A DNA stretch of 64,000 bases. It comes from Yuukianura sp. NJ FZ-2021 (Eukaryota). A model generated the notes under the pieces. It saw only the letters and a program-made list of their open reading frames with translations. It did no database searches and was not told the origin of the DNA. The translations under genes were made by a program, and so were the position numbers. Shown piece by piece: positions 10,985 to 59,197 of this stretch. Each line of letters opens with the position of its first letter. The stretch's first letter is position 1. The stretch spans positions 14,880,001 to 14,944,000 of the forward strand of contig CM102286.1 of assembly GCA_046563655.1 (NCBI GenBank). Direction: 5' to 3'.

Positions 10985-12235
10985 TTAAAAGTTAGTTTCG
11001 ACAAAGGCAATTGACCTGCCCATGATCACAGTTTGAGCCAAATGTCGCTCCACTATTTCGTACAACTGAGATCTGGCTACAATTTTGTTTCCTAAGAAAT
11101 CCGTCTCAGCTTGCCTCAGAATCACTAATTGTTTCTTTCTCAACGTGGATTTAGTAACAGGAGGTGATAGGTCAGAGGTCATCTTTGTGTTGTCACTTTT
11201 TGTCTTTTCTCGCTCAAGCCCTTGTTTCAGTAGAGCTCTGATTCCAATGCGACATACTTCGACAGCATCTTCTGGACCATTGATCAAGTACCCCGTCGGA
11301 GTTCCTTTTCGCACAACTTGAAAATCTTTCTGGACAGAAGCATTTGGAGGTTGGTCGACTTTGGAAGATTTGGACAGAAGTTGACCAGATTTGAACGCTA
11401 GTTTCTCTTTGAGTGAATTGCCTCTACTTGTACTTCCGATACTTGCAGCATCTTCTGGTTCTCCAGTAGAAGTTACTGATGTTGATGCTGGACAAGTATT
11501 TGAGAGTGGAACAAGCTTGAGTCGCCGTCTTTGAAAAATTTCATCGACATCTTTAAGTATGAGGTTCCAGTGTTTGTCAAATCCGACGACAAATCCAGTG
11601 CAGTATCCCCGAATTCCAGTCGGATCTCTTCTCCATACTCTGATTCTATTAAATTTCAGTCTTGCTTGATTCAGTGCCTGAAGTGGACCATCACAGTCGT
11701 CCATCAGAGTCATCACATTCGGTTTTTTCTTGACCACGCGAGAGACAGGTACTGGCAATTGGTGAGGCAGAAACCGACGACCGGGTATTGGATAATCTTG
11801 ACTCGAAGCAGCTGATTGGTTTAAAGCTGAGTTAGGAAGGCTAGTTCCGGAAGTTGAAGGGGATTCGGTGTTGACTGATGCTGATACTGATGATAATGCT
11901 GAAACTGCTGAGCTCTTCGCCAGTACTTCTTGACGTGGAATCCTCGCCAGTACTTTCCGGTCTTTTTGAGAAACTGGAAACTTGGAAGGCGGTGTCCCTT
12001 CAACTTGTAGATTTGGAACACATTTGTCGAAATCTGGAAGACTGTGGTAGCGCGGTGCATCGGGAACGGGCAATTTAAAGTCTGTACATCCCAGGGCCAG
12101 AACGGGATTGAAATGTTTAGAACCAATCGAGAGACATTTGGTTGCTGCCAATGCAGGATCCGAATCGTGGTCTTCGATACTGTCCCAGGAGTCCGAGTCA
12201 CTACTGCTGGACGAGAGGTCAAATGTCAACGACAT
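10985..12235 (-). CDS. LSM11: U7 snRNA-associated Sm-like protein LSm11, single coding exon
   Basis: N-terminal SKHFNPVLAL..PVPDAP, Sm1 IRGYCTGFVVGFDKHWNLILKDVDE, a long insertion and Sm2 ERHLAQTVIMGRSIAFV. First ATG at 12235. Confidence 0.85.
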   Translation of the reverse strand: MSLTFDLSSSSSDSDSWDSIEDHDSDPALAATKCLSIGSKHFNPVLALGCTDFKLPVPDAPRYHSLPDFDKCVPNLQVEGTPPSKFPVSQKDRKVLARIPRQEVLAKSSAVSALSSVSASVNTESPSTSGTSLPNSALNQSAASSQDYPIPGRRFLPHQLPVPVSRVVKKKPNVMTLMDDCDGPLQALNQARLKFNRIRVWRRDPTGIRGYCTGFVVGFDKHWNLILKDVDEIFQRRRLKLVPLSNTCPASTSVTSTGEPEDAASIGSTSRGNSLKEKLAFKSGQLLSKSSKVDQPPNASVQKDFQVVRKGTPTGYLINGPEDAVEVCRIGIRALLKQGLEREKTKSDNTKMTSDLSPPVTKSTLRKKQLVILRQAETDFLGNKIVARSQLYEIVERHLAQTVIMGRSIAFVETNF

Positions 12236-12614
12236 TGTGACATTCTGTAATGGACAAAGTACATTAGTACATGGTAACGTCACTACTTCAGTTTCTTTCA
12301 AAATAACGATTAGAGATAGAATTTAAAAAAAAAACATACCTCTTTTTGTTGACTTTTATGGCAATGTTGATTAATTAATTAACCAATTTTCTAATTATTG
12401 TGATTAATTAAAGTAATTAACGTAGATGATGACGAGAATACTCAGAAAAATTAAACCCACATGTTTCATAAAAGAAAACAAACTATTATTTTATGAAGTT
12501 CGCGCTCAGTTGTTTCATTGTGTCAAAAGTGAGACAATGAAAGTAAATGTTTAGGACAATAACATTTATTTATTGTTTTAAAATTCCTAAATTTCCAGAA
12601 AAACCGGAAACGTT

Positions 12615-13475
12615 TTACTTTCCAAATCGCTGTTCACTTTGTTCGTAAATTCGGAGCCAGTTTTCCAAATCCTGTTCATCGCATTCCGGCATGTACTTGT
12701 TTTCGTAGTAGAATTCGGAGTAAACGGATTGCCAAATCAAAAACCCCGAGTTCCTGACAGTTCCTGAATCCTTGGCTCCAGTGCGTACAATCAAATCGGG
12801 TACGGGATACTCCTGTTCAGCCATCCAAACGTTCTTTGAAATTGCTTCGGCAGAAATTGGTTCAACAGAATCGGAATTTTGAATTTTTCGAATTGCTTCT
12901 ACAATGTCGTCTTGTCCTCCATAGTCCATTGCCAAGTTGAGACAATGTTCTGTTCTGGATTCAGTTTCAGTTTCAATTTTGATCATATTTTCAATTATGT
13001 TTTTTGGTAGTCTGTTCCTCTGTCCAATGAATCTCACTCGACTGTTGAATTTATCAGCAAGTTGTTTAATAATTGAAAACTGTCCAAGCACTAACTTGAA
13101 CAAAATTTCCAATTCCAATTTTGAACGGCCAAAGTTGTCTGTACTGAGAACCCAAAATGTAACTGTGTGAACCCCGAGTTCAAATGCTGCTTGCGCTGTT
13201 TTCAAAACGGCGTCTTTCCCGCGCGAGTATGCAGTTAATCCTGTCACGTTTGCTTGGCGGGAATACCGTCGGTTTCCGTCCGGAACAATTCCGAGGTGTT
13301 TCACTTTCGTCGTCAGTGTTCGGCCTGGTGCAGTTTTACCGCCATTTTGAGTATTGGGTACCGATTTCCAGCCATTTTTAGTATTGGGTACCGATTTCCA
13401 GCCATTTTGTGTATTGGATACCGATTTCCCTCCTTTTTTGGTATCGGTTGCCGATTTCCCGCAGTGATTTCCCAT
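12615..13475 (-). CDS. cis-prenyltransferase (UppS/undecaprenyl-PP synthase family), intronless, with a repetitive N-terminal extension
   Basis: KHLGIVPDGNRR, FWVLSTDNFGRS, LNLAMDYGGQDDI, PDLIVRTG, RNSGFLIWQSVYSE and C-terminal QRFGK. Confidence 0.9.
   Translation of the reverse strand: MGNHCGKSATDTKKGGKSVSNTQNGWKSVPNTKNGWKSVPNTQNGGKTAPGRTLTTKVKHLGIVPDGNRRYSRQANVTGLTAYSRGKDAVLKTAQAAFELGVHTVTFWVLSTDNFGRSKLELEILFKLVLGQFSIIKQLADKFNSRVRFIGQRNRLPKNIIENMIKIETETESRTEHCLNLAMDYGGQDDIVEAIRKIQNSDSVEPISAEAISKNVWMAEQEYPVPDLIVRTGAKDSGTVRNSGFLIWQSVYSEFYYENKYMPECDEQDLENWLRIYEQSEQRFGK
13341..13460. repeat. 30-bp coding tandem repeat, 4 copies (10-aa unit KSVPNTKNGW)
   Basis: Units of GCCATTTT-GTATTGGGTACCGATTTCCA type start at 13341, 13371, 13401 and 13431. 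Confidence 0.9.
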
Positions 13476-14377
13476 TTCAAAAATATTTTAGACGAAAAAG
13501 TATATGCCAACTTTGTAACACACCTTGAGCTTGTTGTTTCAATATTTAAAAAATTTAAAATTTAAATTTCCAAAATTTTGAAATCGTTTGTACGCGGAAA
13601 TGAAAAGACTTTTCTCGAACGTTTCAAAAGGGAAGTGAAGAACTGCCCTTGTGAATAATGTTCATACCACAGCCGACTTACGAGGAGTGGCTTTTAGAAT
13701 ATTTTTGAAAACGTTTTTAAAGCAGTGCGGAGTCTCACGATGAATGGGTCCTTGGCCGTTTCGCAAAATGTTTTTGTTTTTCTTAAAAAGTTCTCAAGAA
13801 AATCAAAGTAATGATGCACAGCAAGTTTTGAAATTTGAATGCATTTTGCATTCTTGATTCACATTAGATTGAGTAACCTAGCTACCACATGCAAAACGTA
13901 AGAATTTTCGAATGCAATTTAAAATTTAATCTTAATTTTAATTTAATTTAATTTTTTTAAACAAACTTTTATTGCCAAAAATTCTTATTAATTGTGAGAA
14001 ATGTTTTTACCGAATTAGTTGTTTTGAGAAACAAAAACAAGGTTATTTCGGCACTTACTTTTTTTTGAAAATCTGCACTCCTAACCCAACATTTGTTGAT
14101 GCAATTTTTCTTAACAGATTGCGACATAAATTATTACTACATGATGAAAATTCTTACGTAAACATATTTTCGTCGAATTGGTTTTAATTTTTTTTTTGGC
14201 TTAATAATTTAATTGGCATTTTGATAACTTAACTTTTATCTGACGAAAAAGTTGAAATTTTTGAGTCGATTGGTTTTAACTTATCTTTTGATCAGTTTGC
14301 GTCCACTTTGTATTGATTGCAAATTTTCATGTACCTCAATTCTGCGACATTTGTCAGTTTTTAGCTGTCTTTAAATC

Positions 14378-17300
14378 ATGTTTCCAATTTTGTTCCAACT
14401 GTTTTTTGTGTCAACTTTCGTTTTGACCGCTACCCCACTCCATTTAAGTTCAAGTGTTGAAGAATCTAGTTCAAAGGTCAATGACCCCGCGGGGTTTAGA
14501 GGTCACGGGGTGACCTTGACCCAGAGACTGCCTCGGGCGGTGGTTCCCAGTCACTATGACCTTGGCATCATCCCAATCATTGATCCACTGGACAAAGACT
14601 ATCTCAAGGCCGATGGACGCGTTGTCATCACCTTTACTTGCGTTGAGTCCGCCACATTCATTGTTCTCAATACAGCCGAAACGGAAATCCGAAGAAATCC
14701 TGTGGTAAAAATTTAAAAAACTACTTTTTAAAAAAGAATCAAATTTCAAAATTTGAAATTTCATTAGTTGAGTCCTGCGGTGACCGTGAATGGGTACACG
14801 CTAGATGCAGCAACTGAAACGCTCACGATAGAACTTGGAGCGCCGCTGGAAGTGGGCGAAATTTACACTGTTGAAATTTATTTTTTTTCAAGAGTTGCCG
14901 ACGACAGACAAGTTGGGCTGTATTTCAGCAAGTACTTGGATCCATCTACTGGGGAAATGAAGTAAGCACACGACTCAAAATTTTGAAAACATAAAATTTT
15001 CAAAATTTTCAACATTTATGACAGCTACCATGTCGCTACTCAATTTCAAGCAATAGAAGCGAGAAAAGCGTTTCCGTGTTTTGACGAACCAGAACTAAAA
15101 GCTACTTTTGTGATTCGAATTGGAAGACAAGTAAACCTGCATCGATCGCTTTCAAATATGCACCAAAATGGAGATCCTCAACCAATGTAATTAAATAATT
15201 TATATGATTATATTATATGAATATATTTTAATACATTTTAATTGATTGATACTGTTTTAGTCCAGGTAGACCTGATTACGTTTACGACATTTACCACGAG
15301 ACTCCAGTTCCAATGGCGACATACTTGGTAGCCATTGTGGTCATGTCGGATTTTCCAGCAGTCCTAGCCGATCCAGCAATCTACCCGGTTCCAGTTTCAG
15401 TACGAAAAAATTCAAAATTTTGAAAGAATTTTGTGCATTTTGAAATTTTTTTTAACATTATAGGTATGGGGTCCGAATTTTGTAGTGACGCAAGCTGATG
15501 GTCAACTATCTGCTGACACTGCAGCCAAAATGTTAGCGTTTTTTACAGAGTACACTGTACATCCCTACGATTTTGAAAAATTTGACTCTATAGCAGTTGG
15601 AGAATTTTACTACGGGTGAAATTTTGAAAAAAAAAAGGTCAAAAGTTTTAATTTCAATTTCAAATTTTGTTGAAATTTTGTTTTAGCGCCATGGAAAACT
15701 GGGGATTGAACATCTATGGAATGCAGAACTTGTTTTACATTGAACACGACATGACTATGGAAGACAAATGGCGAATTATGTCCGTCATTGCTCATGAAGT
15801 TTCTCATCAGGTGATTTTGACGTATTCGTCAAAAGTTGACGTCTACGTCAAAGTTAAAGTCGATGCATACGACAATTTACGTCATTTCGATGTACAATTA
15901 CGACACGTCATTTTGATGCATGACGTAAAAACGTCAAAGAACGTCAAAATTACGAATGACGTCAAAACCACGAATTACGTCAGTTTTTGGTCTGTTTTAG
16001 TGGTTTGGGAACGCGGTGACCTGTGATTGGTGGACAGACCTTTGGCTCAACGAGGGATTGGCCAACTACATGGACTTTGTTGGCACCGCCGCGGTCGTGC
16101 CGGAGTATGCACCGTGGGAACGGTTTGGCATTGACAACGCTCACAGTGCCCGCCTCAATGACGGCATGCCTAACGCCGCGCCCGTCCACGGTGACAATTT
16201 GACTCACTTTGAAGATCCGCCGGTGGCTCAAAAAGCTTCTGCACTCGTCAAAATGATGGAGGGATTTTTGACTCCAGGCACTTTGCAGCGGGGAATTCAA
16301 AAATACGTGGCGGACAAGTGAGTAAAATTCAAAAAACCAAGAAAAAAAGTTTCAAAATTTTGACTTTTTTTTTTAAATTTTCAGTCTTTATGGAAGTGTG
16401 CACCAAGATGACTTGTTTGAGGCATTGACTTACCAAGCTAACCAAGAAGGATTTGAAATTGACGTAAAAAAAATCATGGATCCATGGACAATCCAAAGTG
16501 GATTTCCGCTTCTACGTGTGTCAAGGATTTCAAAAACGATGATTTTCATTTCACAGGTTAGTTAATAAAATAAAATTTTCAAAAAATGGTTTTAAGGGTT
16601 CGACTTTTTGTTTTTAGGAAAGATTTTCAAATTCTAAAAGTTATGACTTGGATCCAATGTTTTGGCACATTCCAATTTCTTACATGGCTGCATCTGCGTC
16701 ACCTACAGACGATCATCATTTGCCAAAAACTTGGATGGACCAATCAGATCTCTCCATTTCACATGCAGTTGACAACACTGACGAATGGATACTGCTCAAC
16801 CCAGATGCTTACAGTACTTGCCAAAAAATATACACAAATTTTGAAAATTTTGAAAATTTTCTCTTTTTTAAAAATTTTTGAAAGATTTTTATCGTGTGCT
16901 GTACGACGATCACTTGCGTCAACTCCTCATTGCTCAGCTAGCTCAAGATCCCACAAAAATTTCAGCTCTGAGCAGAGGCCAACTAATTGACGACTACTTC
17001 AAAATTGCACTTGGCGGTAAAGTTTTACATTTTACATAAATTATACATTTATATATTTAAATATGTAAATATCATTTAATTGTAATATTTAAATATTTGC
17101 AGAGTACACAACAATCGATGTGGCTCTTGAGTTTACAGAATATTTGGACAAAGAAACTGAACTGGCCGTTTGGGTTACTTTGTTCGACAATATTCAAAAT
17201 ATTCACAACTTACTCAGCGAACATGGTCAACTTGGAACAGCATTTAGAGTAAAAATTTCAAAAATTTCAAAATTTCAAGATTTTTTATTTGGAAATTTCG

Positions 17301-21868: not shown

Positions 21869-24800
21869 ATGGACTCCATGACGTTAAAGCGGGAAGTTGC
21901 AGCAGTGCTGCAGGACGTTCCGAATCATACTCTGCCGTTGTTCAAGTTTCGTGAAATGTTTGAACGGCGGTACCGTCGGTCCGTATCGACTTCCGACTTG
22001 TACCGAATGCGAGATGTCGTTTCGATTTCGGACAATTCCAATTCAGTCGGAATGGGCGGTAGGAAGATTTCACTTTCGGAGGAATGGACTGTCGAGGTAA
22101 CAAAAAAAAGACGGTTTCGATGTAAAATTTTGACCTTTGACCTTGACCTTTTAGGGTGACGATGGATTGAGTGTGTATTGTCACAGCCATCCTCCGTCGA
22201 TTCACGGTGGATTTGGATCAAACCGTCTCGGATGGGCCGAAAAAGAGATCGGTATTAATTTACCGAACGTGGAAATTGATTTTCGGACGTTGTCGGCACG
22301 GCTCGTGTCGGTTTTGGCTGCTCATCAAGGCGTATTTCCTCTATTCAGGTCCGTTTCACCCAAATTTAAAAAAAAACATAAAAAAACATGAAATTTTGAA
22401 ACTTTTTTTCCCCCCAAAATTTCAGTTTTTTGGATTGCTACGGTGCACAATTTGGTGGAATGAAGCGATTGGACGACGGCGGTGGTGTGCCATTGGAGCA
22501 CTTGATTGCGTCTGTGCATGGAGTGGAAATTACGCATGCGGAAAATGGAATGAAACGAGTTCAATGGAAGAACAAGGGAGAATTCGAAACTGGTAATTTC
22601 AAAATGTTTTTCAAGATTTTCTTTTTCTTTTTTTGAAATTTTTGGATTTGAAGGGTTCCCTGGTGGACATGTCCCGACCTACGACCCCTTAAGTCTCCCG
22701 CTGGCTCAACTGTCACGTGAATTGGTCGATCTGCTCAAAACGACTCCGCGCTGCTCAATTCCATTTTCAAAATTGATTCCCGCCTACCACCACCATTTCG
22801 GAAAACAGTGTCGTGTGGCAGACTATGGACATGTAACTCTCTCATCTCTTTTGCAAACACTGCCCAACACTATCCAAGTACTCGGAGAAGGAGCCAATCG
22901 GATCATCACTTTGGCACACAAGGCTCAAGTAAGGTCAAAGGTCATTGACCTTTTTTCGAAAACTGGCTTCCTGTTGTATTTGAAATGAAAGATGACTAAC
23001 CACTTATCACTTTCGCGAATCGCGACCACCTACCACTTATCACTTTCGCGAATCGCGACCACCTACCACTTTCCCGACCATTTATCACTTTTGCGAATCG
23101 CGACCACCTACCACTTTTCCGACCACTTATCACTTTTGCGAATCGCGACCACCTACCACTTTTCCGACCACTTATCACTTTTGCGAATCGCGACCACCTA
23201 CCACTTTTCCGACCACTTATCACTTTTGCGAATCGCGACCACCTACCACTTTTCCGACCACTTATCACTTTTGCGAATCGCGACCACCTACCACTTTTCC
23301 GACCACTTATCACTTTTGCGAATCGCGACCACCTACCACTTTTCCGACCACTTATCACTTTTGCGAATCGCGACCACCTACCACTTTCCCGATCACTTAT
23401 CACTTTCGCGAATCGCGACCACCTACCACTTTCCCGACCATTTATCACTTTCGCGACCACCACCTACCACTCTCCCACAGACCCTTTCCAAAAATTATAG
23501 AAAATTATTGACTTTTTGTTGTAATTAAAGTCAAACGTCATTGACCTTTTCTTAACAAAGTAATTGACTTTTTGTTGGATTTCACGTCAAACGTCATTGA
23601 GTTTTTTTCAAGAATGACTTTTTGTGGCATTTAAGGTCGAAAGTCATTGACCTTTTTAATAAATTGTTGACATTTTGCTATGTTTTAGATGAAACGTTTT
23701 GCCTCCGATGTGTTCCGAGTGCTCAAAGGTCAACCGGGAATCAAAAAGCAGATTCGAGTGGCTGACTTTCCGCAGTTGTTTGCTGTGACCTTTCCCTCCA
23801 GAAGTTTTTGTCCAGAAGACTACGGACTTTGCTTTTTTTCTGATCTTGTCACGGAATTAGTCGACCACTTTTCAATGATCACTTTGGTCCACAATGACCT
23901 CGGAGAAGAGATGCTTGCGATTCCCAAAAGAGAACAAACGCTGCATGAACAACAGAAAATGAAGATTTTCGCTGCCGAAGTCAGTTTTAAGCATTGCATT
24001 TAAAAATTTGTTTTCGGAAAGTCAAAATTTGTAATTTTGTTCAGGTTGTGGAACTCTTGCGACATTCCATCCGGTGTGAAATGCAATTTTCGAAATTCAT
24101 TCCCTCGTATCACCACCATTTTGGAAAACAATGCAGAGTGTCTGATTATGGATTTACGAAATTAGCGGAACTTTTTGACGCAATTTCGGACACCGTGAGT
24201 TGCGAATTCGCAAATTGTGCAATCGAGGCCACCACGGAAGAAAAAATTCTGCGTTTGACTCCTAAGGAACAAGTGAAGGTAAAACTTTTTCAATTTTTGC
24301 ACATGTGCAGTACTGATTTTAAAAAGTTTCTTTGCAGGTCGTTGGAGGTCAAATCCGAGAAGTTGTTGAAAAGCAACTGGAGATCGGACTTGTGACGAGA
24401 GTTAGTGACCTTGAAGAAATTTTTCTGGCTCAACATGGATTTGCACTGAGAGTTGACCTCTGCGGAGCCTCTGACCTGCGTGACCTTTTGCATCGACTGT
24501 TGTTCCCCTGGGTCAAGGTGGAGGGGGAAGTGATTCGGATTGTGGCAGAGGAGGAGAAGCGACTGCGCATGACGGGGGAGGAGCTTATTGCGACTTACGC
24601 GGGAACTGGAGTCTTTGAAATGGAAAAAGGCTTTGGGCAGTTGGACATTGGAGAGCAGGGCATGACCTCCGCTGACCTTGAAGAAAAATTTAACAAACTC
24701 CGAATTTTCGGAGAGGAAGTCCGAACTTTGCTAGAGGAAGCGGGAGGGTACTTGGGAATTCAAAATATTGAGGCAGCATATAGTCAAAAGTAAGAATTCG

Positions 24801-25826
24801 GAGTTTTGGAGACAAAAAAAAAATTTCAAAATTTCAAATTTTTAAAATTGAAAATTTTCAGATATGGGCGACCACTGATCCCTAGTGTTTTTGGCTGCAA
24901 TTCGTTGATGACCTTGCTCCAATCCATTCCAGAAGTTGCTTCACTGCGAGGAAAATTTCGATCCAGAAGAATTCTTGTTCTGAACAAAGTGAATACCGGT
25001 GAAAACCGAAATCACGGGGGCGGGGCTTACCGTGGCGGGAAATTTTTCGGTTCTGAAAACCGAAACCAAGATGGCGGGCACAACACTGCCCGCAATGCAC
25101 ACAACGGGCACAACAACGTTCATTCTGTGCCGACGCAACCGCAAACTGTTCCTCCACCACTGTTTTCACCCATTCTGCCGTCACCGGCTTTCCGACCACG
25201 TGACACGAACATTTTCAATTTTGAACAAGCAACTTCTCTCAGTTCACCGGTAAGTTTTAAAAAAATTCAAATTTTTGAAAAAAAGATTTCAAAAACGAAC
25301 TTTTTCAAAATTTTATGATAGGTGTATGACATTTGGGTTGGAGACAACGGTGCCCAGGGTTCACCACCCCCGTCATCCCCATCGTTTGTCTGGGCTTACC
25401 ATCCATTTTGCTACCCACCGCCCCCACCCCCTCAGGGGTCGCCAAACATGTTCGTAAGTTCAATTAGTTTAACTAATTTAACTAACTTTAACACTAAAAT
25501 ATTTTAACTTTTAGTTTAACTTTTACTTTTAACTTTTACTTTTAACTTTTACTTTTAACTTTTACTTTTAACTTTTACTTTTAACTTTTACTTTTAACTT
25601 TTACTTTTAACTTTTACTTTTAACTTTTACTTTTAACTTTTACTTTTAACTTTTACTTTTAACTTTTACTTTTAACTTTTACTTTTAACTTTTACTTTTA
25701 ACTTTTACTTTTTAGATTCCAAGTTTCTCCTATGCTCTCTGGAACTCAAATCAGCCCAGCCAACCACCCCTGATGAGTCCACCAGCATTTGAAGTTGAGC
25801 GTCCACCGCCAGCTCCAGTGCAGTAG
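21869..25826 (+). CDS. MARF1: MARF1/Limkain-b1-like protein made of OST-HTH (LOTUS) repeats, multi-exon
   Basis: LPLFKFREMFERRY, PFSKLIPAYHHHFGKQCRVADYG, QVLGEGANRIITLAHKAQMKRF, FSKFIPSYHHHFGKQCRVSDYGFTKL and a Pro-rich tail. TAG at 25824-25826. Confidence 0.85.
22998..23472. repeat. 45-bp minisatellite, about 10 copies, inside a MARF1 intron
   Basis: Unit GACCACTTATCACTTTTGCGAATCGCGACCACCTACCACTTTTCC, with near-identical copies. Confidence 0.95.
25515..25712. repeat. 13-bp tandem repeat (TTTTAACTTTTAC)n, about 15 copies, in the last MARF1 intron
   Basis: Directly visible. It ends at the TTTTAG acceptor at about 25715. Confidence 0.95.

Positions 25827-53912: not shown

Positions 53913-59197
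<5,285 letters not shown>

Follow-up and report, generated by a model that had tools for sequence, protein, structure and literature searches.

The window, i.e. the whole 64-kb stretch of animal DNA analysed here, contains a gene that we read as encoding a functional, host-integrated homodimeric cis-prenyltransferase (cis-PT) of the UppS family, which an animal lineage acquired long ago from bacteria through horizontal transfer and which serves specialised terpenoids. As a whole this reading is given a probability of about 0.6. The gene is a single open reading frame (ORF) on the minus strand (12615-13475), which runs without interruption from ATG to stop and specifies 286 aa. The original prediction had described a single-exon ORF with the motifs IVPDGNRR, WVLSTDNFGRS and RFGK, and these were indeed found at residues 63-70, 108-118 and 283-286 (the C-terminus), respectively. 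A stop codon is located 4 codons upstream of the ATG and the frame from stop to stop comprises 290 aa. At this base composition the computed rate of stops is about 0.066 per random codon, and the ORF matches its Pfam family from end to end. This implies that an open frame of 286 codons did not arise by chance. The features of the locus are as follows.

12615..13475, minus strand: complete single-exon coding sequence of an UppS-type cis-prenyltransferase, 286 codons plus TAA
12618..13310, minus strand: catalytic cis-PT (zeta-fold) domain, residues 56-286 (from Pfam 64-285, AF2 pLDDT and Foldseek)
13311..13475, minus strand: N-terminal extension, residues 1-55, predicted to be disordered (pLDDT 44-52; alignment A1)
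13455..13475, minus strand: start codon in a GAAATGG context, followed by G2...C5 (MGNHCGK)
13341..13459, no strand assigned: 30-bp tandem repeat, 4.0 copies, 86% matches
13266..13280, minus strand: DGNRR, the putative catalytic Asp66 and allylic-diphosphate-binding loop (from homolog conservation)
12765..12776, minus strand: clade-specific 4-residue insertion A234-S237, just before R241/S243
12621..12629, minus strand: C-terminal RxG motif R283-F-G285
12565..12574, minus strand: two overlapping AATAAA hexamers, candidate poly(A) signals 41 and 45 nt past the stop

The ORF was matched by the full PF01255 profile (positions 1-219 of 219; E 7.5e-53; 179.7 bits, cut-off 27 bits). No other domain was found in it by the Pfam search, which includes the absence of a terpene-synthase domain from the same chain. 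TIGR00055 (uppS), with 155.4 bits and a cut-off of 109.55 bits, was the only one of 16 NCBIfam matches to exceed its own cut-off. When the ORF was compared with the sequences in the PDB, a bacterial UPPS (111.3 bits) and a tomato NDPS1 chimera (111.1 bits) were the best matches, whereas human DHDDS reached only 72.9 bits in an alignment that ended at residue 265. In 78 non-fusion homologs nine columns show no variation, and the ORF conforms to all of them; it also has the RxG motif. D66, G67, N68 and R70 are invariant in 78/78 of these homologs; S111, N114 and R117 of the S-x-[ED]-N region, which are invariant or nearly so in the same set, are present, and the IPP-site residues R231, R241, S243 and E254 are retained. 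The chain ends in R283-F-G285-K286, the Arg of RxG being found in 59 and the Gly in 73 of 77 other homologs. Tyr83 replaces a His, a natural variant that occurs in 27/77 homologs, and the Glu adjoining the insertion (conserved in 65/77) is Thr239 in the query and Lys, Lys and Thr in the fusion proteins described below. Judged by its sequence, the ORF is a full-length, prokaryote-type and self-sufficient cis-PT with its own RxG.

The AF2 model had a pLDDT of 86.5 and a pTM of 0.82, with residues 61-280 mostly at 92-98. Foldseek matched it to UPPS, LPPS and NDPS1 with E values of 4e-21 to 1e-18, and the target-normalised TM scores to UPPS and LPPS were 0.85-0.92. Prediction of a homodimer gave a score of 0.80 against 0.00 for the best of three controls. 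Of 30 proteins with solved one-chain pairs 20 attain the mark, and of 23 with solved single chains one does. The positive score may nevertheless reflect what the predictor has learned from similar UPPS complexes, which have already been solved. The runs agreed in at least 92% of the contacts and the partner pLDDT was at least 87. The predicted interface includes residues 237-244, and the clade-specific insertion lies at this interface. The cis-PT is predicted from these models to be a homodimer. The idea of a prokaryotic-type enzyme that carries its own RxG was thus upheld, both by the higher score with UPPS than with human DHDDS and by the predicted homodimer.

With bacterial UppS (PDB 6acs, 1jp3, 4h8e) the query shares the full-length PF01255 domain, DGNRR, the Arg/Arg/Ser/Glu of the IPP site and the C-terminal RxG, as well as the zeta fold and the homodimeric state, which for the query are both predictions. 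It differs in residing in an animal genome, in its 55-residue disordered, repeat-bearing and probably acylated N-terminus, in the 4-residue insertion at the dimer interface with loss of the adjacent conserved Glu, and in its identity to solved UPPS of at most ~30%. The superfamily and the fold are also those of animal DHDDS/NgBR(NUS1) (PDB 6w2l, 6z1n; Foldseek 3.6e-19). However, the query scores 72.9 bits with DHDDS against 111 with UPPS, has a terminal RxG of its own and is without the long C-terminal extension of DHDDS. In the mechanism that we propose, Asp66 of DGNRR together with Mg2+ would ionise the allylic diphosphate primer, and IPP would be held by R231, R241, S243 and E254 and by R283-x-G285 of the partner subunit. 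Head-to-tail addition of IPP would create a new Z double bond and the cycle would be repeated up to the final chain length. The resulting Z-prenyl diphosphates would be supplied to specialised terpenoid metabolism and not to dolichol synthesis.

Two very large searches yielded no protein more than 44% identical to the query. Among prokaryotes no identity exceeds 41%, and the best named one is at 38%. The closest relatives, P0272, P0273 and P0122, consist of a PF19086 terpene synthase (TS) and a C-terminal PF01255 domain in one chain. They are encoded on gene-sparse metagenome contigs, whose long-ORF fraction is 0.47-0.64 compared with 0.99 for a prokaryotic contig. The 4-residue insertion is present in 4 of the 20 rows of alignment A1, namely the query and these three fusions, and its columns are empty in 77/77 other homologs. 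Because the query belongs to a clade in which cis-PT domains follow class-I terpene synthases, and shares the insertion uniquely with them, we infer a role in specialised terpenoids rather than in housekeeping glycosylation; the query would be the stand-alone counterpart of the fusions. The specialised isoprenoid role that had been suggested for it is in this way supported by the nearest relatives and not by the window, in which the TS part of P0122 found nothing better than E 3.1. As the window contains no terpene synthase, the link to these enzymes comes entirely from the relatives. Among 8000 candidates scored against the TS half of P0272, the one match was P0272 itself.

The TS domains of the fusions belong to PF19086, as do the terpene synthases of microbial type known from springtails and mites. 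Such enzymes, many of them encoded by intronless genes, set a precedent for terpenoid genes of this type in the genomes of soil micro-arthropods (PMC13638087, PMC11665903). Both papers treat terpene synthases, whereas the query is a cis-PT; 'prenyltransferase' is a word that PMC13638087 does not use in its main text (0 occurrences) and that PMC11665903 contains a single time, among its references. P0272, P0273 and P0122 resemble the bifunctional prenyltransferase-terpene synthases of fungi and bacteria, such as fusicoccadiene or variediene synthase (PMC12130500, PMC11474042), in that a cyclase and a prenyltransferase domain are joined in one chain, with the cyclase N-terminal. In those known enzymes the prenyltransferase is of the trans (alpha-fold) type, whereas that of the three fusions is of the cis (zeta-fold) type; the query itself is not fused.

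Homomeric bacterial-type cis-PTs in a eukaryote are represented by the short-chain enzymes of plant plastids (NDPS1, zFPS and CPT2; PDB 7vpc, 5hxo, 8wu6). They feed Z-prenyl diphosphates to terpene synthases, as the query may do, and their scores with the query (105-111 bits) equal those of UPPS. Since UPPS and the short-chain NDPS1 and zFPS score alike, the chain length of the product does not follow from similarity. The plant enzymes are of plastid ancestry and are equipped with plastid transit peptides. In contrast, the query is animal-encoded, begins with an N-terminus of the acylation type and falls close to CPR-type bacteria in the tree.

The reading that would otherwise account best for these data, although we consider it unlikely, is that of a homomeric ~C45-C60 synthase for housekeeping or alternative polyprenol supply, which would provide polyprenyl/dolichyl carriers or cuticular polyprenoids and have no link to terpene synthases. 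It agrees with the uppS score by TIGR00055, with the C55 and C50 enzymes among the best PDB matches and with the lack of a terpene synthase nearby in the window. Linear [7-9]-terpenes are moreover abundant in springtails (PMC11321324). Against this, short-chain NDPS1 and zFPS score about equally and the nearest relatives carry fused terpene synthases. Animals in general also already possess DHDDS/NUS1.

The original prediction had further raised irregular head-to-middle coupling, of the lavandulyl or cyclolavandulyl type, which is now very improbable. Springtail cuticular terpenes do include the irregularly branched nitidane and viaticene (PMC11129290). The lavandulyl-PP synthase 5hc8 was the top Foldseek match (4.4e-21), but the E values for UPPS, NDPS1 and Rv2361 were within one order of it. 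In LPPS a His occupies the position of the Asn in S-x-[DE]-N. The query has kept this Asn (N114) together with all IPP-site columns, and its sequence scores are 93.5 bits with LPPS and 35.3 bits with CLDS, as against 111 with UPPS; the cyclolavandulyl-PP synthase, at 35 bits, is distant.

The origin of the gene was studied in a maximum-likelihood (ML) tree. The query and four fusion domains were united with UFBoot/SH-aLRT supports of 96/93, or 96/90 when P0009 was added, and this clade nested in a CPR-rich bacterial group of 48 rows (100/95). Every row that bears a Levybacteria, Saccharimonadota (L050), Patescibacteria or Woesebacteria label falls into this group. Its internal branches are weakly supported (20-83), and with no more than 38% identity to the best named prokaryote no donor is singled out. 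In a protein atlas the clusters nearest to the query were all prokaryotic. The comparison with DHDDS gave a divided answer: the free ML tree parted the query clade from the DHDDS-like row by branches supported at 100/95 and 93/95, whereas AU tests did not reject joining the query alone (p 0.053, lnL -17.4) or the whole clade (p 0.15, lnL -15.3) to P0163, a single DHDDS-like row with a very long branch in a tree that includes no plant, algal or metazoan cis-PT. Since neither test rejects it, the tree formally leaves room for an origin on the DHDDS side. What stood of the horizontal-transfer claim is thus the nesting in bacteria, the animal gene flanks and the signs of domestication; the AU tests withhold formal support.

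The corresponding alternative, an old eukaryotic cis-PT lineage (DHDDS-related or organelle-derived) that came down by vertical descent and disappeared from most animals, could draw on these AU results, on the depth of the clade (at most 44% identity) and on the 'NF' instead of 'NW' that follows the catalytic Ser-x-Asp/Glu in both the query and P0163. However, 'NF' also occurs in 12/77 other homologs, Thermus rows among them, and the query has its own RxG, whereas human DHDDS aligns with it no further than residue 265. Furthermore, the free ML tree placed the query in the bacterial group, and no animal homolog was present among the best 150 of 9355 matches. Vertical descent is hence hardly probable, and the most likely route by which the cis-PT gene reached the animal lineage is an old horizontal transfer from bacteria.

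In the assembly the cis-PT gene is physically embedded among animal genes. Its immediate downstream neighbour, 314 bp away, is an LSM-domain ORF (10985-12301, 438 aa), and on the other side the first Peptidase_M1 exon follows at ~900 bp, beyond the interval 13475-14378. The Pfam profiles of MGAT4, Peptidase_M1, P450, Tsr1 and subtilase are each covered piecewise by separate ORFs in the window. The neighbours had been called mostly intron-rich, which agrees with these five split animal genes, the LSM-domain gene being the unsplit exception as one long ORF. The GC3 of the cis-PT was 0.406 compared with 0.34-0.48 in eight host ORFs, its codon log-odds 0.077 compared with 0.027-0.076, and its composition equals that of the flanks. 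Codon usage was discarded as a test for foreignness, because it is a weak one: AT-rich CPR genes score 0.096 under host preferences. The start context, A(-3)/G(+4), is host-like. The AATAAA pair after the stop is only suggestive of a poly(A) signal, the background being 0.73 AATAAA per kb per strand. Rfam families were absent from the whole window. For the Tsr1 exon, the protein atlas gave Eukaryota, with Chordata as the most frequent group.

The N-terminal extension has no equivalent in the prokaryotic relatives in alignment A1. The repeat encodes three 10-aa units, KSV[SP]NT[QK]NG[WG], at residues 17-46, and behind them a fourth, degenerate one, KTAPGRTLTT, at residues 47-56. The MGNHCGK start presumably fits the N-myristoylation pattern PROSITE PS00008, with a nearby Cys for palmitoylation; this MG..C start is probably acylated and would tether the enzyme to a membrane. 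We propose that the disordered, repeat-bearing arm was added by the host. That the locus stems from chimeric assembly or contamination, or is a decaying gene that no longer functions, is scarcely credible, in view of the animal ORFs 314 bp and ~900 bp away inside a 64-kb animal window, a composition like that of the flanks, an N-terminal extension that resembles nothing in the prokaryotic relatives, a host-like start context, the lack of any prokaryote above 41% identity, and an intact frame in which every invariant residue is retained.

To our knowledge, animals make cis-polyprenyl chains solely by the heteromeric DHDDS/NUS1, for dolichol. In a survey of cis-IDS in mealybugs, the sole UPPS-type enzyme reported in the accessible text was that of the bacterial symbiont (PMC10960109). 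A nuclear, domesticated and self-sufficient bacterial-type cis-PT would, if our reading is true, open up to its host another supply of prenyl diphosphates, independent of the first. Springtails widely possess terpene synthases of microbial type (PMC13638087), and the unusual long, branched terpenes of these animals are at present ascribed to the ubiquinone pathway (PMC11321324). It is conceivable, albeit doubtful, that the query and its TS-fused relatives form a soil micro-arthropod cis-PT clade for specialised terpenes, in which polyprenyl diphosphates with a Z double bond next to the diphosphate would have their head group cyclised directly by class-I terpene synthases, giving the head-cyclised or branched [6-9]-terpenes that are typical of springtail cuticles; this would be a route distinct from the proposed ubiquinone (all-trans) origin. 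The fusion of cis-PT and terpene synthase, an architecture not found in the literature searched, would be a new bifunctional one. Together, the cis-PT gene and the related fusions make the question of the source of springtail terpenes directly testable by experiment.

The cis-prenyltransferase (cis-PT) gene was found as one uninterrupted ORF of 286 codons at 12615-13475 on the minus strand, running from an ATG, with an upstream stop four codons before it, to a TAA. All three motifs named in the original prediction were present in its product: IVPDGNRR (residues 63-70), WVLSTDNFGRS (108-118) and the C-terminal RFGK (283-286). Pfam family PF01255 was matched over its full length (residues 64-285, profile 1-219 of 219, E 7.5e-53). 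Of 16 NCBIfam matches only TIGR00055 (uppS) exceeded its curated cut-off (155.4 versus 109.55 bits), the remaining 15 being species-level equivalogs below their high cut-offs. Comparison with the PDB gave 111.3 bits for bacterial undecaprenyl-diphosphate synthase (UPPS) versus 72.9 bits for human DHDDS, the alignment of which ended at residue 265. These results, together with R283-x-G285, bear out the proposal of a prokaryote-type enzyme with its own C-terminal RxG motif. The ORF is a genuine and probably functional bacterial-type cis-PT gene that was domesticated in an animal genome.

The protein has the fold of its family and an intact catalytic inventory. Residues 56-286 were confidently predicted as a cis-PT fold (mean pLDDT 86.5, pTM 0.82) and residues 1-55 as disordered (pLDDT 44-52). 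In an 82-row alignment all columns invariant in 78 non-fusion homologs were kept (D66, G67, N68, R70, N114, G151, R231, R241 and S243), as were S111, R117, E121, E254 and R283-x-G285; Tyr83 replaces the His of most homologs, a substitution that is common in nature (27 of 77). Two departures were seen, a 4-residue insertion (A234-S237) just ahead of R241/S243, and Thr at position 239, a Glu in 65 of 77 homologs. A two-copy model scored 0.80, whereas the best control out of three scored 0.00 (of the known homomers 20 of 30 reach this mark, of the single chains 1 of 23), with at least 92% agreement in contacts between dimer runs and a partner pLDDT of at least 87; because UPPS dimers have already been solved, the predictor may here be reproducing known structures and not giving new evidence. 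As the predicted interface includes residues 237-244, the insertion would be placed at the dimer interface. The N-terminal arm is absent from the aligned prokaryotic relatives. Within it, 4.0 copies of a 30-bp tandem repeat (86% matches) code for three units of 10 residues each and, after them, a fourth, degenerate one. The arm begins with M-G-N-H-C-G-K (start context GAAATGG), and this MG...C start fits the N-myristoylation pattern, leaving the Cys free for palmitoylation. The putatively acylated N-terminus would be a candidate membrane anchor.

Among the matches listed in two very large searches and a search among longer proteins, the closest was at most 44% identical. The word-indexed search gave 342 matches at E<=0.001 among 696 candidates (identity at most 41% in the best 120), the exhaustive representative search 9355 at E<=0.001, 79 of them at <=1e-30 (at most 41% in the best 150), and the search among longer proteins three among 1312 candidates. 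The best overall matches, both from this last search, were P0272 (705 aa, 44%) and P0273 (686 aa, 40%); P0122 (663 aa, 40%) was among the best 150 of the 9355. These three proteins combine an N-terminal microbial-type terpene synthase (TS) domain (PF19086), in which the DDxx[DE] and NDxxxxxxE motifs are visible, with a C-terminal PF01255 domain. ORFs of this fusion type, and a second TS ORF, lie as follows on gene-sparse metagenome contigs:

L001:391-2505, uninterrupted fusion ORF of P0272, on a 7.6-kb metagenome contig
L001:6722-7594, second TS ORF, 4.2 kb downstream of the fusion and running off the contig end
L002:2-1282, fusion ORF

Only these three fusions and a copy on L002, 82% identical, have the 4-residue insertion in common with the Yuukianura protein (in alignment A1, 4 of the 20 rows have it, namely the Yuukianura protein and three fusions; in all 77 of 77 other homologs the columns hold gaps). 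Among 274 stored proteins the loop was lengthened by at least four residues in the Yuukianura protein, the three fusions and P0009 (five residues) only; in P0245 and P0247 it exceeds the canonical length by two. Long ORFs and Pfam matches are lacking over several kb of L001, and the fraction of sequence in ORFs of at least 100 aa was 0.47 in L001, 0.64 in L002 and 0.50 in the window versus 0.99 in the prokaryotic locus L003; therefore the fusion genes look eukaryotic. By sequence, the clade is small and deep, marked by its unique insertion at the predicted interface, and its other known members are TS fusions.

Other additions to cis-PT domains were also encountered. P0274 (617 aa, from NCBI), GC-rich and bacterial-looking, has PF10776, presumably the YtpB/tetraprenyl-beta-curcumene-synthase family, fused to a cis-PT domain 30% identical to that of Yuukianura; if this assignment is right, a cyclase and a cis-PT would have been joined a second time, independently. 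In many CPR-type UppS proteins an N-terminal acylphosphatase (PF00708) is present, or about 190 residues without Pfam match are added at the C-terminus (for instance P0132, P0138 and P0156; P0003, P0015 and others of about 426 aa).

Named prokaryotic relatives were at best 38% identical and scattered over Patescibacteria/CPR, DPANN and other archaea, Clostridia, Actinomycetota and others (best 80 of at least 585 relatives among at least 600 pattern matches). The nearest atlas clusters were all prokaryotic (Nanobdellota, Pseudomonadota, Saccharimonadota). A FastTree phylogeny of 227 rows comprised the Yuukianura protein, four fusion domains (P0122 included), the 81 loci L003-L083, 7 of the 120 word-search matches and 134 of the 149 representatives P0123-P0271 (15 without a motif-anchor match were left out). 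It joined the Yuukianura protein to the fusion domains with support 87, and these to P0009 with 97. With IQ-TREE (LG+C20+F+G4 PMSF; 71 hand-chosen rows, the 46 nearest in FastTree and 25 diverse others) the corresponding values were 96/93 and 96/90, the bootstrap being not fully settled (correlation 0.979). A 48-row group (100/95) held every Levybacteria, Saccharimonadota (L050), Patescibacteria and Woesebacteria row and two Bacteroidota MAGs; because support inside it was poor (20-83), no donor can be named. Five UppS homologs of this group (P0135, P0145, P0172, P0173 and P0179) have N-terminal signal-peptide-like or TM-like extensions, unusual for a cytoplasmic enzyme.

A derivation from animal DHDDS was weighed with P0163 (480 aa), the only DHDDS-type row in the trees and AU tests, which is a single chain in which a DHDDS-like domain is tandemly duplicated, with no C-terminal RxG and on a very long branch. 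The AU test did not reject the grouping of this single long-branch row with the Yuukianura protein alone (p 0.053, delta lnL 17.4) or with the clade in its entirety (p 0.15, delta lnL 15.3). Therefore the phylogeny favours, without proving, a DHDDS-independent bacterial origin, and the case against DHDDS is made mainly by the protein's own RxG, the passed uppS model and the PDB scores. The horizontal acquisition originally predicted is likely, though not formally proven; in the maximum-likelihood tree the protein nests within the bacterial group (100/95).

Across the window, stop-to-stop ORFs matched animal families partly and piecewise (MGAT4 in two ORFs, Peptidase_M1, LOTUS, Tsr1, EB module, subtilase, P450 and protein kinase); therefore the window is intron-bearing animal DNA. 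The first exon of the Peptidase_M1 gene lies in divergent orientation about 900 bp from the cis-PT ATG. Further features are:

10985-12301, minus strand, 438-aa LSM-domain ORF (weak match, E 1.2e-4, below the Pfam cut-off), starting 314 bp from the cis-PT stop on the same strand
23032-23471, 9.9 copies of a 45-bp tandem repeat (96% matches), open in several frames and directly behind a LOTUS-domain exon
25502-25712, 13-bp repeat (16 copies)
54914-58153, plus strand, uninterrupted 1079-aa stop-to-stop ORF, its first 74 residues matching the end of a protein-kinase domain

The LSM-domain neighbour, directly downstream, likewise consists of a single long ORF; it is rich in Ser, and most of it matches no family. 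GC skew swings strongly at 23-26 kb, and beyond residue 74 the 1079-aa ORF has no Pfam match and a strong AT skew (0.24-0.35). No Rfam families were found in the window, and the atlas assigned the Tsr1 exon to Eukaryota, no more narrowly. The GC content at 12-14 kb (0.37) equals that of the surroundings, and the GC3 of the cis-PT gene (0.406) falls within the 0.34-0.48 of eight host ORFs. Its fit to host codon preferences was 0.077 (core 0.099) versus 0.027-0.076 in these ORFs; because AT-rich CPR genes fit about equally well (up to 0.096), this is weak evidence. Two overlapping AATAAA signals occur 41 and 45 nt past the stop (background 0.73 per kb per strand).

The enzyme would catalyse Mg2+-dependent, head-to-tail, Z-selective condensation of IPP, presumably as a homodimer that may be membrane-tethered through its acylated N-terminus. 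Similarity does not reveal how long the product chain is, because C55, C50, C20, C15 and C10 enzymes score alike (98-111 bits; Foldseek E 1e-18 to 4e-21). The irregular coupling suggested originally is not favoured. Although lavandulyl-PP synthase ranks first with Foldseek, it does so by a narrow margin only; in sequence, cyclolavandulyl-PP synthase matches distantly (35 bits), and nothing is missing from the IPP site.

Microbial-type TS genes are reported from springtails, mites and fungus gnats (PMC11665903); another study reports 277 of them, 55% containing introns, spread over 21 of 26 springtail genomes (PMC13638087), and the word 'prenyltransferase' is absent from its main text. Springtail cuticular [6-9]-terpenes are linear, head-cyclised or branched, with a proposed ubiquinone-pathway origin (PMC11321324), and an irregular nitidane with Z double bonds is present in springtail cuticles (PMC11129290). 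In a mealybug survey the cis-IDS candidates were DHDDS-like and the sole UPPS was that of a symbiont (PMC10960109). Among the papers listed by the literature searches, none describes a UppS-type gene within the nuclear genome of an arthropod, or a TS fused to a cis-PT, which would be a cis-PT version of the bifunctional architecture. TS-like sequence was not found within the window (TS part of P0122 by tblastn, best E 3.1).

The Yuukianura enzyme is a variant within a known kind of enzyme. The strongest clue to its function, an evolutionary one read from sequence, is the TS fusion in its sisters. Since such a fusion is understandable only if the product of the cis-PT domain is passed to the cyclase, the sister domains would supply their fused class-I TS. 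By analogy with these metagenome relatives, and about as likely as not within the explanation as a whole, the stand-alone enzyme may supply Z-prenyl diphosphates to specialised terpenoid metabolism.
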